Source: an uncultured Candidatus Saccharibacteria bacterium (GTDB lineage: Bacteria; Patescibacteriota; Saccharimonadia; Saccharimonadales; UBA10212). Taken from it: a stretch of DNA of 64,000 nt. The stretch covers positions 1,391 to 65,390 of the forward strand of contig CAZETJ010000002.1 of assembly GCA_964514575.1 (NCBI GenBank), read 5' to 3'. This document shows, piece after piece, positions 4,489 to 51,561 of this stretch (position 1 is the first letter of the stretch; every line of letters begins with the position of its first letter). The notes beneath the pieces were generated by a model. That model saw only the letters and a program-made list of their open reading frames with translations. It had not been told where the DNA came from and ran no database searches. The translations under genes and the position numbers were made by a program.

Positions 4489-4830
4489 ATGGATTTTGAC
4501 GAGTATCAAAAAAAAGCCATTACGACTGATGTCTACGGTGGCAAGGGCGACATCCAATCAATCGCATTTTTAAATAAAGTTTTAGGCTTGGTCGGCGAGA
4601 CTGGCGAGGTGGCCGAGAAAGTCAAAAAGCTGCAGCGCAATCAGGCTGGTGAAATGAGTAAATCTGACAGGCAGGAGCTGCTCAAGGAGTTGGGCGATGT
4701 ACTTTGGTATTTGAGTGCATTAACTTTCTATCTCGGCGAATCGCTAGACAAGCTTGCTCAAAGCAACCTAAACAAACTTTTCGATCGTAAATCACGAGGC
4801 GTTATCAAATCCCAGGGCGACAACCGTTAA
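4489..4830 (+). CDS. MazG-like nucleotide pyrophosphohydrolase
   Basis: 113 aa. GLVGETGEVAEKVKK...ELGDVLWYL matches the EExxE/ExxD MazG helix motifs. Confidence 0.8.
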   Translation: MDFDEYQKKAITTDVYGGKGDIQSIAFLNKVLGLVGETGEVAEKVKKLQRNQAGEMSKSDRQELLKELGDVLWYLSALTFYLGESLDKLAQSNLNKLFDRKSRGVIKSQGDNR

Positions 4831-9607: not shown

Positions 9608-10195
9608 CTAAGGGGTTGTAGCTGCGGCGTTAGAGCTGGTTGTGCTACTGGTCTGGCTACAGTTAGGTCCGTTTGGATTCTGCTGGATAAACTGTTTGAT
9701 AGCCGTAACAACCTTGCCATTGTCCTGCAGGTTCTCCCAGAAAGCGACCTGATTGCGGTTGATGACCATCTCGTCATATGGCGAGTGTAACTGCTGACAG
9801 CCGAGCTTGGTTAGCTGCGGATTAGCGGCAGTGCCGGTCGATGTTTGGTCGGTCGTCAGATAATAGACGTCTTTGAGGATCACATACTTGTCATTCAAGC
9901 GTGTGATGTGTCCAAAATAAGTAGTGTAAGCTACCGATCCGGAAGTACTACCGCCGTTAAGGAAAACAGCTTGATATTTATCCGTCTTGACTTGGCCGGC
10001 CTCGGAATAACCGATACTACCGTTAGACCAGATTGACCACCCAATTACTATTAAAAGCACTAGAGCCACCAGGAAAGTGAATATGAACCACTCAATCCTT
10101 ACAGCTCGGGCCTCCCAGTCGAAGTGCTTGCGGCGAGACTTTTGCTGGACAGGAGTCCCTGCGGACTGATCCTGACCACGTGACATAAACTCCAT
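9608..10195 (-). CDS. Hypothetical membrane-anchored protein, 195 aa
   Basis: AGGTGGA SD. Single TM (WFIFTFLVALVLLIVIGWSIW) followed by an extracytoplasmic domain. Confidence 0.6.
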   Translation of the reverse strand: MEFMSRGQDQSAGTPVQQKSRRKHFDWEARAVRIEWFIFTFLVALVLLIVIGWSIWSNGSIGYSEAGQVKTDKYQAVFLNGGSTSGSVAYTTYFGHITRLNDKYVILKDVYYLTTDQTSTGTAANPQLTKLGCQQLHSPYDEMVINRNQVAFWENLQDNGKVVTAIKQFIQQNPNGPNCSQTSSTTSSNAAATTP

Positions 10196-33431: not shown

Positions 33432-34163
33432 ATGAGTGGTCATAGCAAGTGGTCAACAATCAAGCGCCAAAAAGGTGTTAACGATGCCAAGCGCGGCGCT
33501 TTGTTTACTAAATTGGGCAACCAGATCGCCATAGCGGCTAGGTCAGGCACTGACCCCGCCACTAATTCTTCCTTAGCTATGGTGATCGAGAAAGCCAAAA
33601 AAGCCAGCATGCCAAATGTAAATATCGAGCGTTCTATTGCCCGGGCAGCTGATAAATCTGCAGTCGCCTTAGAAGAGAACATGTATGAGGGCTATGGCTC
33701 GGGCGGCGTCGCGGTCTTGGTCGAAGTAGCCACTGATAATAAAAACCGTACTTACCCCGAAGTCCGTGCGGCCTTTTCCAAACATGGCGGCAGTCTGGCC
33801 GGCGCTGGCAGCGTGGCTTTCCAGTTTAGCCGCAAGGGCGTGATTCGTCTAAAAGGTCTTGGGGAAGATTTGGAGTTGGCAGCTATTGAAGCCGGCGCCG
33901 AAGATGTTTATGAAGAACCAGAAACCAGTGAAACCGTTGTTCACACGGCTCCAACCGAATTGGCCAAAGTCCGAGACGCCCTGATTGCCGCGGGGCTAGA
34001 AGTTGAGGACGCCGAGCTGACCTACGTGCCCAACGATGTTATTAAAGTTTCCGATAGCGAGACTGCCCGTAAAGTTATGAACCTTATGAATGCCCTGGAA
34101 GACATCGATGAAGTCGTGGCTACGCACACCAATTTTGATATAGACGAAGGCGTGCAGGTTTAG
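33432..34163 (+). CDS. yebC: YebC/PmpR family DNA-binding regulator
   Basis: MSGHSKWSTIKRQKG..DAKRG..F.KL is a hallmark N-terminus. Confidence 0.95.
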   Translation: MSGHSKWSTIKRQKGVNDAKRGALFTKLGNQIAIAARSGTDPATNSSLAMVIEKAKKASMPNVNIERSIARAADKSAVALEENMYEGYGSGGVAVLVEVATDNKNRTYPEVRAAFSKHGGSLAGAGSVAFQFSRKGVIRLKGLGEDLELAAIEAGAEDVYEEPETSETVVHTAPTELAKVRDALIAAGLEVEDAELTYVPNDVIKVSDSETARKVMNLMNALEDIDEVVATHTNFDIDEGVQV

Positions 34164-34165
34164 CC

Positions 34166-34804
34166 ATGAGATTATTTTTATCAAGCGAGAACCTGGGCGA
34201 ATACCCAGAAGCATTTATTGAGCTGGTCGGCGACAACAACAAGCTGGCCTTTATCGAAAATGCTAAAGACGACTGGACGCTTGATGATCGTACCGCTAAA
34301 CTCCAAGAGCACAAGCATCAGTTCAGACAGCTTGGCTTTGACGTTCATGAGCTAGACCTTAGAGATTTCTTTGGTAAAGCCGATAAGCTAGACAATTGGC
34401 TAAAAGATTTTGGTGGCGTGTTCGCTGCCGGTGGAAATTCATTTATACTACGTCGCGCCATGGCCCAAAGCGGTCTAGACAAGATCCTGATAAAACGGAC
34501 GAAAGATGACTCCGTAGCTTACGGCGGTTCAAGCGCTGGGAGCATAGTCGTTACGCCAAGCTTAAGGGGTAGCGAACATGGTGATTATCCTGATGTTGTG
34601 CCCAAAGGCTACGATAAAAAAATAATTTGGAAAGGGCTAAGCCTGGTCCCGTTTTATGTCGTGCCGCACTACAAGTCGAGTTGGTGGGGCGAGGAGGCTG
34701 ACATTATGGTCCGGAAACTCAAGGCCAAGGACTCACGCCATTACAAATTGCGAGACGGACAAGTCATAGTCGTTGAGGCTGGTAAAATCGAGTATCTAAA
34801 ATGA
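34166..34804 (+). CDS. Peptidase S51 (dipeptidase E-like)
   Basis: GGNSFILRRAM and GGSSAGSIV (Ser nucleophile context). Confidence 0.7.
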   Translation: MRLFLSSENLGEYPEAFIELVGDNNKLAFIENAKDDWTLDDRTAKLQEHKHQFRQLGFDVHELDLRDFFGKADKLDNWLKDFGGVFAAGGNSFILRRAMAQSGLDKILIKRTKDDSVAYGGSSAGSIVVTPSLRGSEHGDYPDVVPKGYDKKIIWKGLSLVPFYVVPHYKSSWWGEEADIMVRKLKAKDSRHYKLRDGQVIVVEAGKIEYLK

Positions 34805-34805
34805 G

Positions 34806-34874
34806 TCCCGTTAAAGCTAAGTATTTTTATAAAATCTGCCGGTTCGCTTGGCAGCGAGCCGGAGCTCTAACGGG
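34806..34874. mobile_element. MITE-like element, copy 1 (13-bp terminal inverted repeats, flanked by ATGAG/ATGAG)
   Basis: TCCCGTTAAAGCT ... AGCTCTAACGGG(A). Inner hairpin CTGCC/GGCAG. About 80% identical to 50887-50964. Confidence 0.6.
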
Positions 34875-35351
34875 ATGAGAATTATCGGCATCGATCCAGG
34901 CACGGGTATTCTGGGGTTTGGGATTATCGAGGCCGAAGGCGACAAATTCCACTTGGTGGATGGTGGAGTTATCCGAACGCCGGTTAAAGAAGACGATGCT
35001 GTGCGTCTGCAGACTATCTTCGAAGAACTGACCGATATCATTGCCGAGACTAAGCCCGAAGAAATGGCCGTCGAGAAATTGTTTTTTGCCCAAAATGTTA
35101 CTACCGCCATGACGGTCGCCCAGGCCCGCGGCGTAGTTTTGCTAGCAGCCAAGCAAGCCGGCCTAAAAATTTCGGAGTACACACCTCTCCAAATTAAGCA
35201 GGCGCTGACCGGCTACGGCCGGGCCGAAAAAAAGCAGGTCCAGGAGATGGTGCGGGTGATGTTGGGACTAAAAGAGATTCCAAAGCCAGACGATTGCGCC
35301 GATGCTCTGGCCGCTGCCATCTGTCATTCGCAGTCGGTTAAGGTAAAATAA
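34875..35351 (+). CDS. ruvC: Holliday junction resolvase RuvC
   Basis: MRIIGIDPGTGILGFGIIE ... EKLFFAQN ... DCADALAAAICH. Confidence 0.93.
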   Translation: MRIIGIDPGTGILGFGIIEAEGDKFHLVDGGVIRTPVKEDDAVRLQTIFEELTDIIAETKPEEMAVEKLFFAQNVTTAMTVAQARGVVLLAAKQAGLKISEYTPLQIKQALTGYGRAEKKQVQEMVRVMLGLKEIPKPDDCADALAAAICHSQSVKVK

Positions 35352-35355
35352 AGCC

Positions 35356-35928
35356 ATGATAGCCTCATTAAATGGCAAGGTTGCCGAAAAACAAGGCGAC
35401 TTGATAATCTTAGAGATCGGCGGACTCGGCTACGGAGTTTACGTTACGTTTGAAGATTTTGGCGCGTCAACGGTCGGCTCCAATGCCAAGCTTTATATCT
35501 ACGAGCACATTCGGGAAAACAGCCATGATTTATTTGGCTTTAGGCGCCCGGAAACAAAATTTTTGTTCGAGCAGCTACTGAGCGTCAATGGCGTTGGCCC
35601 TAAGATGGCTATGGCGATTATGAGTCTGGCAAATTCGGAGCAAGTTCGTTCGGCCATCGCCGGCGGTGATACCAAATTTATCACTGGCGCCAACGGTGTT
35701 GGCAAGCGCGTTGCCGAGCGGGTGATTGTTGACCTTAAAGACAAAGTCGGCCTGGCCGCCTCTGATACAGCCACGGATTTTTTGACGGCTAGCGCCAATC
35801 CTAACGACGAAGCTCTACAAGGACTGGTGGCTCTGGGATATTCCGTGCAAGACGCTGCTGAAGCTCTGAAAGGCGTTGACGATAAACTGCCATCTCCAGA
35901 ACGCATAAAGCAGGCCCTTAAGGCCTAG
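35356..35928 (+). CDS. ruvA: Holliday junction helicase subunit RuvA
   Basis: MIASLNGKV...GLGYGVYV... LLSVNGVGPKMAMAI (HhH). Confidence 0.93.
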   Translation: MIASLNGKVAEKQGDLIILEIGGLGYGVYVTFEDFGASTVGSNAKLYIYEHIRENSHDLFGFRRPETKFLFEQLLSVNGVGPKMAMAIMSLANSEQVRSAIAGGDTKFITGANGVGKRVAERVIVDLKDKVGLAASDTATDFLTASANPNDEALQGLVALGYSVQDAAEALKGVDDKLPSPERIKQALKA

Positions 35929-50429: not shown

Positions 50430-50885
50430 GTGACCGCAACAAACCATGCCATAACCGGCGCAGTGATCGCTGTTACTTTTAGTTCGCCGTGGTTGGCGCT
50501 GCCGGCGGCTTTGCTGTCACATTTTGTACTAGACGCTGTTCCGCATTGGGACTATCAACTGAAGCTTGCCGCGAAGCGAGCCGTAATGGCGGGTGATCTT
50601 TTACTAGCGGCCATAATTATTTTGGCGGTCGCTTTCTTTGCCGGTACGTTCAACGCGCCGGTTTGGGTGATTGTAGCCTGCGGCGCGCTGGCTGTGGTGC
50701 CCGATGCTATGTGGCTGCCGCATATCTTACGCGGCCGGCCAATTCCCATGGGTGACGACAGGCCGCTTTACTACGCTAGGCGATTTCACCGCTGGATTCA
50801 GTGGAGCGAGACAAAGCGATTGGGTATTTTAACTGAGTCTGTTTGGCTGGCGGCCATGGTTATAATTCTGTTTCAGTCGAAATGA
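50430..50885 (+). CDS. Membrane protein resembling YdjM/DUF457 metal-dependent hydrolases
   Basis: MTATNHAITGAVIA...LSHFVLDAVPHWDY and four TM segments. Confidence 0.5.
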   Translation: MTATNHAITGAVIAVTFSSPWLALPAALLSHFVLDAVPHWDYQLKLAAKRAVMAGDLLLAAIIILAVAFFAGTFNAPVWVIVACGALAVVPDAMWLPHILRGRPIPMGDDRPLYYARRFHRWIQWSETKRLGILTESVWLAAMVIILFQSK

Positions 50886-50886
50886 A

Positions 50887-50964
50887 TCCCGTTAGAGCTA
50901 AGTATTTTATCAAAGATAAAATCTGCCGCATATCTAGCCGGCAGTTATGCGGAGCTCTAACGGG
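50887..50964. mobile_element. MITE-like element, copy 2 (perfect 13-bp terminal inverted repeats, flanked by ATGAA/ATGAA)
   Basis: TCCCGTTAGAGCT ... AGCTCTAACGGG(A). Inner hairpin CTGCCG/CGGCAG. Confidence 0.6.
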
Positions 50965-51561
50965 ATGAAAATTACGGCCCTCAAGCAGCAGGTTAAAAAT
51001 CCGGGACGGGTTAGTATTTTTGTCAATGAGAAATACAGTTTTTCACTGACCATTAACCAGGTGGCTGACTACGGGGTCAAAAAAGATCTAGAAATATCCG
51101 AGGCCGAGCTTAAGAACTTCAAAAAAATGTCCGAAGACGGCAAGCTGGCAGCGCGGGCTCTCGAGTGGGTGCTCAACCGGCCGCATTCAGTCCGTGAGTT
51201 CAAGGATTACATGTACCGCAAAAAGGCCGAGCCGGAACTGGCCGGAAAGTTGATCGAGGAGTTCGGGGCAAAGGGTTACCTAAACGACGAAGCCTACGGC
51301 CGATGGTTGATCGAGCTAAGGGCTAGGACCGGCAAAAGTAACCGGGCGATGAGCGCCGAGCTTTTTGCCAAAGGATTGGATAGGGAAGTCATTGGTCAGA
51401 TTCTAGAAGAGCAGGAGGCCAGCGAGGCGGAACGACTACGGGTACTAGTAGCCAAGAAACGACCACTCTCCCGATATAAAAATGATGACCCAAAGCTTAT
51501 AAAATACTTAACTAGTCAAGGATTCTCTTACGACCTAGTTAAGCAAGAGTTAAATACTTAA
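50965..51561 (+). CDS. recX: RecA regulator RecX
   Basis: Three-repeat helical protein following recA. Start trimmed to MKITALKQQ. Confidence 0.8.
   Translation: MKITALKQQVKNPGRVSIFVNEKYSFSLTINQVADYGVKKDLEISEAELKNFKKMSEDGKLAARALEWVLNRPHSVREFKDYMYRKKAEPELAGKLIEEFGAKGYLNDEAYGRWLIELRARTGKSNRAMSAELFAKGLDREVIGQILEEQEASEAERLRVLVAKKRPLSRYKNDDPKLIKYLTSQGFSYDLVKQELNT
51502..51524. repeat. Motif family copy 5, AAATACTTAACTAGTCAAGGATT (inside recX)
   Basis: Read directly. Confidence 0.8.

Follow-up and report, generated by a model that had tools for sequence, protein, structure and literature searches.

A gene whose start codon is abutted by inverted-repeat DNA has to be translated all the same, and how this is possible is the question raised by one junction in the 64,000-nt stretch of an uncultured Candidatus Saccharibacteria genome analysed here (contig CAZETJ010000002.1; the whole stretch is called the window). 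Between the gene for an S51-family peptidase and ruvC, the window carries an inverted-repeat element with ATGAG on both sides (34801-05 and 34875-79). A reading made from the sequence alone had proposed that a miniature inverted-repeat transposable element (MITE) had split an ATGA stop/start overlap here, and that such elements target translational-coupling junctions and bring their own Shine-Dalgarno (SD) sequence. We found that the element was inserted into an ATGA overlap and that it belongs to a family of about 50 copies, which are probably miniature non-autonomous DNA transposons of Saccharibacteria whose start-codon copies survive by preserving translation of the host gene.

Filled and empty sites at ruvC and recX

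The element upstream of ruvC, hereafter copy 1, occupies window positions 34806-34875 (70 nt) and ends in 13-nt terminal inverted repeats (TIRs), TCCCGTTAAAGCT at 34806-34818 and AGCTCTAACGGGA at 34863-34875, which are complementary at 12 of 13 positions as first described. The left ATGAG gives the TGA stop (34802-04) of the 212-aa peptidase open reading frame (ORF) and the right one gives the ATG (34875) that opens RuvC, also in line with the earlier description. A34875 can be counted either as the last base of the repeat or as the first base of the flank, which makes the element 70 nt long with 4 nt duplicated (TGAG), or 69 nt long with 5 nt duplicated. The sequence-only reading had taken the second version; we correct this to the first as the likely one, because the other copies of the family favour 4 nt. 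The features of the junction are listed below.

34166-34804, + strand: gene for the S51-family peptidase, the upstream host gene; 212-aa ORF with its TGA stop (34802-34804) in the left copy of the duplication
34802-34805, + strand: left target-site duplication TGAG; with A34801 added it holds the old ruvC start (ATG 34801-03); the empty site of relatives reads aATGAGAATT
34806-34818, + strand: left TIR TCCCGTTAAAGCT, conserved in about 50 copies
34820-34837, + strand: AT-rich hairpin 1 of the fold, type A inner sequence (AAGUAUUUU-UAU-AAAAUCU), 96% paired and almost invariant
34839-34862, + strand: GC-rich hairpin 2 of the fold (CCGGTTCGCT / AGCGAGCCGG, loop TGGC), with a variable, covarying stem
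34861-34864, + strand: GGAG, Shine-Dalgarno-like, 10 nt 5' of the ruvC ATG, shared in the fold between the base of hairpin 2 and the outer stem
34863-34875, + strand: right TIR AGCTCTAACGGGA, its final A being the first base of the present ruvC start codon
34876-34879, + strand: right target-site duplication TGAG, from the comparison of filled and empty sites and from the other copies
34801-34878, + strand: relay upstream ORF (uORF), 25 codons (MSPVKAKYFYKICRFAWQRAGALTG), starting at the old ATG, crossing the element and ending in a TGA that overlaps the new ATG (AUGA)
34875-35351, + strand: ruvC, the downstream host gene; 158-aa ORF, PF02075

Three contigs from relatives, encoding RuvC proteins 91%, 91% and 87% identical to that of the window, have the same yebC-S51-ruvC-ruvA order, with a 4-nt overlap between the S51 gene and ruvC. 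Their empty junction reads ...gagtatctta[a/g]ATGAGAATTATCGGCATCGATCC, compared with ...gagtatctaaaATGAG[TCCCG...CGGGATGAG]AATTATCGGCATCGATCC at the filled junction of the window. The empty site that had been predicted by deleting the element and one flank (...AAATGAGAATTATCGG...), a direct ATGA overlap, is thereby found in three related lineages; the ATGA overlaps reported elsewhere in the window (11505, 43268, 54826) are also real. Moreover, all 10 contigs that encode an identical RuvC carry the identical element, and these are independent assemblies, so the element is no assembly artefact. Filled and empty lineages occur together in rhizosphere samples (3300028573, 3300028800 and ERZ272454xx). 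Copy 1 is confirmed as the insertion of a MITE-like element into an ATGA stop/start overlap.

Pfam PF03575 (Peptidase_S51) is annotated on the identical upstream gene in the homologous loci L043-L052. A different arrangement was seen in L059-L062 (RuvC 88% identical): here the S51 peptidase gene is separated from ruvC by a gene of the inositol-monophosphatase family, whose overlap with ruvC is 20 nt. The S51 gene of L059 is also shortened, to 164 aa. Remodelling of the junction upstream of ruvC has thus taken place more than once.

The arm motif occurs 7 times in the window at up to 2 mismatches, with 2.2 expected, and none of 100 shuffles reached 7. A second copy (copy 2; 101.7 bits with the covariance model described below) lies upstream of recX with (A)TGAA on each side, and its features are as follows.

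50430-50885, + strand: gene for a 151-aa membrane protein, the upstream host gene, with its stop TGA at 50883-85
50883-50886, + strand: left target duplication TGAA; the old recX ATG is 50882-84
50887-50965, + strand: copy 2, 79 nt, with TIRs at 50887-99 and 50953-65, hairpin 1 at 50901-24, hairpin 2 at 50926-52 and GGAG at 50951-54
50966-50969, + strand: right target duplication TGAA, from the comparison of filled and empty sites
50882-50968, + strand: relay uORF, 28 codons (MNPVRAKYFIKDKICRISSRQLCGALTG), with a TGA at its end that overlaps the recX ATG
50965-51561, + strand: recX, the downstream host gene, 198 aa, PF02631 and PF27462

Empty sites were identified here as well: on contigs whose RecX proteins are 92% and 73% identical, the membrane-protein gene overlaps recX by ATGA (...ctgagATGAAAATAACC). 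Copies 1 and 2 are 84% identical over the aligned region including flanks, the arms and hairpin 1 being conserved and hairpin 2 carrying compensating changes.

Copies, ends and target sites of the family

Further copies, which the sequence-only reading had proposed to look for, were sought with a pattern that required intact arms (CCCGTTANAGCT-N35-65-AGCTNTAACGGG) and with a covariance model built from 25 copies of the commonest inner type. The pattern scan returned 16 loci from a collection of species-representative genomes, all of them Saccharibacteria, Saccharimonadales, Patescibacteria or uncultured metagenome-assembled genomes, and 26 loci from metagenome contigs without taxonomy, while viral contigs gave 0 matches. 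Within the same loci the covariance model picked up additional copies that were longer or more diverged, again at starts, and about 50 copies were found altogether, including the second one in the window. The elements are 62-115 nt long; their sole ORF is a frame of 23-39 codons, the relay frame treated below, and they have no coding capacity for a transposase. Their 13-nt ends (YCCCGTTAGAGCT...AGCTCTAACGGGR) contain a 12-nt core that is identical in 44 copies, and the inner sequences fall into at least 10 unrelated types with the arms in common. In diverged copies the inner three positions of both arms change together, from AGCT to ACTT/AAGT or ATTT/AAAT. The family thus shows these properties of MITEs: small size, no transposase coding, shared TIRs, a target-site duplication (TSD) established by filled and empty sites, and dispersed copies.

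Two other identities were considered and rejected. Rfam at its gathering threshold returned only tRNAs in the window, and with E up to 10 the best local matches scored 13-14 bits (E 2-4), giving no known RNA family; a ribozyme or riboswitch is at odds with unrelated inner sequences that have only the arms in common and with host genes without a shared function.

The length of the duplication was read from the flanks of the start-codon copies. The flanking 4 bases are identical on the left and right in 34 of the 37 unique copies and covary between sites (TGAA in 20, TGAG in 7, TGGA in 7, TGGG in 2 and TGCA in 1). The base before them on the right-hand side is A in all 37, and the corresponding first base on the left is T or G in three (TTGAA in L020, GTGAG in L034 and GTGAA in L002b), which is about the usual proportion of non-ATG start codons. 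The outermost element bases are complementary, T...A, in 35 of 37. Copies away from starts have C...G termini, and their duplications match at 4 of 4 bases (TTGA, TAGG, CTAA, TTAG), not at 4 of 5. Because the right-hand base is always A, the outermost T...A is complementary and the non-start copies match at 4 of 4, the duplication is most likely 4 bp with 13-nt arms and not 5 bp, and the A of the present ruvC and recX start codons would therefore be the element's own. This 4-bp duplication with an A supplied by the element goes beyond the sequence-only reading, as does the relay ORF that runs from the old ATG to the new start.

With respect to the target, both bases after ATG are purines at 33 of 34 element sites, compared with 46% of 188 crude gene starts (P ~1e-10), which indicates a real TG-R-R target preference. 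The common denominator of the sites is xTG-R-R at a start codon. No longer target motif was found, the G at -3 being the genomic background of gene starts, and a purine after ATGA was not significant as a target signal of overlaps (background 11/14 purine).

All 37 unique copies abut the ATG of a substantial ORF, always with the GGAG-bearing arm on the side of the gene (GGA in two variants). The GGAG that had been noticed 10 nt before the ruvC ATG (34861-64) is found at the same distance in about 32 of the first 34 start-codon copies and is kept across unrelated inner variants, but only in copies that abut a gene start; most non-start copies are without it. The host genes include ruvC, recX, msrA, rpmJ, yraN, cysS, ligA, murB, rfbA, a HIT gene and an XRE-type regulator. 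A co-oriented upstream gene of at least 100 aa ends in the left TGA in about 8 of the 37 (the window copies w1 and w2, L009, L011, L012, L022, L032 and L033), so ATGA overlaps are a subset of the sites and not the target. The proposal of an element that seeks out coupling junctions with its own SD thus stands as far as the MITE-like insertion and its GGAG are concerned, and is too narrow in the choice of site.

The remaining copies lie at intergenic start codons. There the old start usually has no SD, and a -10 hexamer (TATAAT, TACAAT, TAGAAT, TATACT or GATAAT) ends 4-11 nt upstream of it, mostly 6-8, which suggests that these host genes may be leaderless. Within the window, 13 of 57 crude gene starts have a -10 hexamer and no SD, and 15 of 57 have an SD. 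Hexamers of this kind (TAAAAT, TAGAAT, TATAAT, TACAAT) end 6-8 nt before the ATG at 33432, 35356, 35945, 36422, 3945, 16177, 30518 and 44760; the one at 35356 would give ruvA a putative -10 of its own within the 3' end of ruvC. Judging from such motifs, leaderless initiation appears to be common in the host Saccharibacterium.

Copies can be locally dense: there are 2 in the 64-kb window, 4 in a 1.7-kb stretch of L002 and 3 in a 1.3-kb stretch of L029. In L002 (4637-6312) and L029 (8125-9441), three successive co-oriented genes each have an element at the start codon within 1.3-1.7 kb, and L002 also holds a truncated 45-nt copy in the opposite orientation (4739-4794). This clustering suggests local hopping or a permissive neighbourhood. 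Orthologous genes carry an element in different genomes in four instances, msrA (L003/L009), rpmJ (L019/L020), a yraN-like gene (L011/L033) and the XRE-type regulator (L005/L002 4637); the members of these pairs differ in the hairpin 2 stem or in the inner type, and about 2 pairs would be met by chance on a rough estimate. The insertions may be old and shared, their hairpins having turned over rapidly, or the genes may have been hit repeatedly and independently.

A 62-nt group with the arms CCCGTTACAGCT/AGCTGTAACGGG (L030 77-138, L035 2599-2660, L039 1756-1817 and L042 2000-2061) is treated as a separate relative. It has C...G termini (G...G in L042), duplicates CTAA or TTAG (YTAR-like) and lies away from gene starts. 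In L035, the one locus whose surroundings were examined, it lies between ftsE and ftsY on a proteobacterium-like contig, and nearly the same ends therefore occur outside Saccharibacteria as well.

Reading frame and RNA fold of the element

Read from the old start codon, 32 of the 34 unique copies keep an open frame throughout the element, compared with 8/34 and 0/34 for the other two frames and 9/34 for the flipped element. In 20 copies this relay frame stops at a TAA in the right arm, 7 nt before the new ATG, with a peptide ending in ...EL, and in 12 it stops at a TGA that overlaps the new ATG, with a peptide ending in ...GALTG. Element length modulo 3 is 1 in 20 copies, 2 in 13 and 0 in a single one. 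When unrelated inner types were counted instead of copies, the relay was open in 8 of 10, where shuffled inner sequences gave an expectation of 0.06-0.31 for each (P ~1e-4). Six further copies that had not been part of the set behind the hypothesis were also inspected. Five of them have a relay ORF, ending at -7, -8 or +1, and among the five are two long copies (34 and 37 codons) and two with a displaced upstream ATG. The sixth, L037, has no GGAG and shows an in-frame N-terminal fusion instead: at 9888-9971 there is no matching duplication, and an ATG 2 nt 5' of the start of the match is in frame with a 311-aa ORF, extending it to a predicted product of 338 aa. This element may be translated as an N-terminal extension, in the manner of the Rickettsia palindromic elements discussed below.

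The predicted RNA of copy 1 folds into a three-way junction (-34.3 kcal/mol, z = -4.8), and that of copy 2 reaches -38.6 kcal/mol (z = -6.2). In the alignment of 25 sequences, 97% of the cells in the three-way junction are paired, with hardly any variation in the outer stem and the AT hairpin. Hairpin 2 (34839-48 with 34853-62, loop UGGC) shows changes on both sides at 6 of its 10 pairs (46 cells), a score reached in 0 of 500 shuffles; slid-alignment controls were 31-45% paired. The sequence-only reading had drawn an inner CTGCC...GGCAG hairpin. The CTGCC before hairpin 2 (34836-34840) and the GGCA(G) in its loop (34850-34854; columns 42-46 and 59-64 of alignment A2) are indeed almost invariant and can pair in 96% of cases; this pairing shows no covariation, however, and covariation supports 34839-48/34853-62 instead. 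For CTGCC and GGCA(G), an alternative fold, a protein site or a contact with the transposase are all possibilities. The covariation of hairpin 2 could come from selection on RNA, from selection on single-stranded DNA or from templated correction of the palindrome.

Two further observations concern the hairpins. The 3' strand of hairpin 1 (window 34828-34835 and 50916-50922) holds GATAAAAT in the commonest inner type and TATAAAAT in copy 1. TAAAAT in hairpin 1 is a -10 variant that also precedes apparently leaderless genes of the window, and an outward promoter toward the host gene is conceivable; a consensus scan found no -35 partner for it, and a complete sigma-70 promoter within the element was rejected, as no full promoter consensus was present. 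In hairpin 2 of copy 2, the 10-mer CCGCATATCT of the 5' strand (50926-50935) recurs 208 nt upstream, at 50718-50727, within the membrane-protein gene. Such a flank match has an expectation of 0.14 in the window and was seen with no other copy, and the recurrence is probably due to chance. Flank matches are not in excess, and a guide-like role of the variable hairpin 2 stem was rejected.

Probable survival at start codons, rival readings and precedents

The account that we rank first, and consider probable, is survival after insertion. A DDE-type transposase acting in trans would move the elements, and the persisting copies would be those inserted at the TG of a start codon in such a way that the GGAG arm faces the gene. 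The last A of the element would form a new ATG with the duplicated TG, and the 3' arm would provide GGAG 10 nt before it. The old start codon would be left intact on the far side, either leaderless or coupled to an upstream TGA, and would open the stop-free ORF of 23-39 codons. Ribosomes on this relay ORF would open up the 14-bp outer stem, in which the SD and the AUG are otherwise concealed; they would terminate either at the UAA, 7 nt ahead of the new AUG, or at the overlapping UGA, and pass to the gene by termination-reinitiation. In the case of ruvC and recX, where the ancestral ATGA overlap was split, a one-step coupling would have become a two-step relay. The sequences establish the insertions with their empty sites, the TIRs and the duplication, the position and single orientation at start codons, the kept GGAG, the open relay frame with its stops, and the covariation; that the relay ORF is translated and coupled to the host gene, that the start-codon bias stems from survival rather than from targeting, and that a trans-acting transposase moves the elements, we infer.

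Several results weigh against this account. A full-length parent element with matching ends, which had been envisaged from the sequence, was not found: no arm pairs lie 150-4000 bp apart in 334 kb of sequence, viral contigs and the plasmid and phage collections likewise gave neither an autonomous element nor a transposase with such ends, blastn against plasmids and phages gave only a 32-nt chance match, and an extra arm in L035 lies within coaD on the proteobacterial contig and marks no parent insertion sequence (IS). Copies in the same genome are substantially diverged (84% for the window pair, with different hairpin 2 stems), which a recent burst from a single master copy would not produce. 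A palindrome can also acquire compensatory changes through templated (quasi-palindrome) mutation, with no selection on RNA. An SD is used at only about a quarter of the crude gene starts in the window, and the GGAG of the element is partly buried in the base of hairpin 2 and the outer stem, while 10 nt to the AUG is at the long end of working SD spacings. Finally, intergenic TGRR sites outnumber start-codon TGRR sites by roughly 10:1 on a rough estimate, yet non-start copies are rare (L004, L007, L021, L012b and L002 4739). This rarity means either strong selection after insertion or a search bias, as the pattern required intact arms. A near-exclusive position at starts needs strong loss of the other copies, real targeting or positive selection. 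Loss of non-start copies is plausible in streamlined genomes, and the intact-arm search would have exaggerated it.

Active targeting, in which the transposition machinery recognises initiation regions, for example melted or bent DNA at a leaderless +1 or a longer sequence cue, comes second, and we consider it unlikely. It would account directly for 37 start-codon copies against a handful elsewhere, for the fact that both window insertions missing from relatives sit at start codons, for the three successive occupied genes of L002 and likewise of L029, and for the orthologues occupied by different variants (msrA, rpmJ and yraN). However, conservation of the flanks stops at TGRR, with the G at -3 explained by gene-start background, and ATGA overlaps inside operons have no obvious DNA feature in common with leaderless promoters. 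A fixed orientation and an open relay ORF are inherent in the element and call for no targeting, some copies lie off starts (TTGA in L004 and L021, TAGG in L007), and the orthologous coincidences, about 4, are near the rough random expectation of about 2.

Third, and less likely again, the element could be a domesticated regulatory leader, whose structure and uORF usefully control the downstream gene and whose mobility is mostly historical; candidate functions are temperature- or ribosome-load-dependent translation, RNase III processing that uncouples the cistrons, or an internal promoter with the -10-like GATAAAAT. Near-invariant arms and hairpin 1 across divergent genomes, a covarying hairpin 2, the conserved CTGCC/GGCA alternative pairing, very high stability (-34 to -39 kcal/mol) and same-genome copies that are diverged and not recent would all fit such a role. 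It is opposed by host genes without a functional theme, by unrelated inner sequences with only the arms in common, by close relatives that do well without the element at the same genes, and by the lack of a full promoter consensus in the element and of an Rfam family match. It is highly improbable, finally, that the element is a non-mobile leader conserved for cis-regulation of ruvC, or else a palindrome due to chance or to faulty assembly. Nothing but the strong fold speaks for this, and it is refuted by the element-free ruvC loci with an exact ATGA overlap in three relatives, the roughly 50 copies before unrelated genes with their own matching duplications, and the same sequence in 10 independent assemblies.

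[quoted passage not shown] These are apparently mobile short repeats at start codons and intercistronic junctions, in which the end of a small ORF overlaps the host start (-4 spacing) and translational coupling keeps the host gene expressed (PMC12548453, citing Supply et al. 1997). The Saccharibacteria elements follow the same logic in lying at start codons or junctions with an internal ORF, the relay, that would be coupled to the host gene, and MIRUs are the nearest analogue that we identified. MIRUs are direct, often tandem units of 46-101 bp, have no terminal inverted repeats or long hairpin and are restricted to mycobacteria. The Saccharibacteria elements, in contrast, are single units folding into a three-way hairpin, with 13-nt TIRs, a 4-bp TSD, a built-in GGAG and an A that completes the ATG, and there is no sequence similarity between the two.

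The family also resembles other bacterial MITEs (Correia/NEMIS of Neisseria, RUP of pneumococcus, ERIC and Nezha), which are likewise small and dispersed, have TIRs and a TSD and no transposase gene, are co-transcribed with their neighbours and form stable hairpins. Correia and RUP duplicate TA, and Correia has 26-bp TIRs, promoters, an IHF site and an RNase III site. Membership in Correia/NEMIS was rejected, the TSD here being TGRR and the 13-nt TIR unrelated. To our knowledge, none of Correia, RUP, ERIC and Nezha has been reported almost exclusively on start codons in one orientation, or as rebuilding an SD, an ATG and a coupled uORF. Rickettsia palindromic elements (RPEs) are similar in being palindromic mobile elements tolerated in expressed genes by means of an open frame. 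RPEs are in-frame insertions translated within the host protein, whereas the frame-fusing length class is avoided here (1 of 34 copies) and only L037 appears as an in-frame fusion. The IS1380 family of insertion sequences may be a source of the transposase: ends that begin with CC and a target duplication of 4-5 bp characterise it and are found here too. This resemblance is generic, and a transposase gene with these ends was not found. REP/BIME elements (RAYT-associated) are palindromes of 20-40 nt with a 5' GTAG and no TSD, and membership was rejected, the present elements having no GTAG head and a clear TSD. An integron attC site was rejected as well, since the order is reversed (GTTAGAG ... 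CTCTAAC, compared with R'' RYYYAAC ... R' GTTRRRY) and the host genes are housekeeping genes. The TIR sequence of the family had no match in the paper text searched, and in the literature we found no description of this family or of any MITE in Saccharibacteria or the Candidate Phyla Radiation (CPR), nor of a TIR element in which an SD, the A of the ATG and a relay ORF with a fixed stop come together.

The family would be a second, independent case of a mobile element made harmless at start codons through translational coupling, with MIRUs the sole comparable description found, and at the sequence level the case is clearer than that of MIRUs, as it has real empty sites, TIRs and a TSD. It is apparently the first MITE family for Saccharibacteria and the CPR, whose tiny, gene-dense genomes leave almost no room for selfish DNA. 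For the annotation of such genomes it carries a warning: an 80-nt gap before a gene may be an element, and the first base of the start codon may be derived from it. Filled and empty alleles of one gene provide natural experiments on termination-reinitiation, leaderless initiation and SD use in uncultivated bacteria. A bolder proposal, possible but not the one we would favour, is that of a transposon lineage specialised for start codons, which either homes to initiation sites, including the leaderless +1, or is so adapted, by its own SD, its own A for the ATG and a stop-free relay ORF with set stop positions, that starts are its niche. If this is true, then in a phylum whose genes often seem to be leaderless, genes that were leaderless or ATGA-coupled would become uORF-coupled and SD-led, and translation initiation would be rewired genome by genome.

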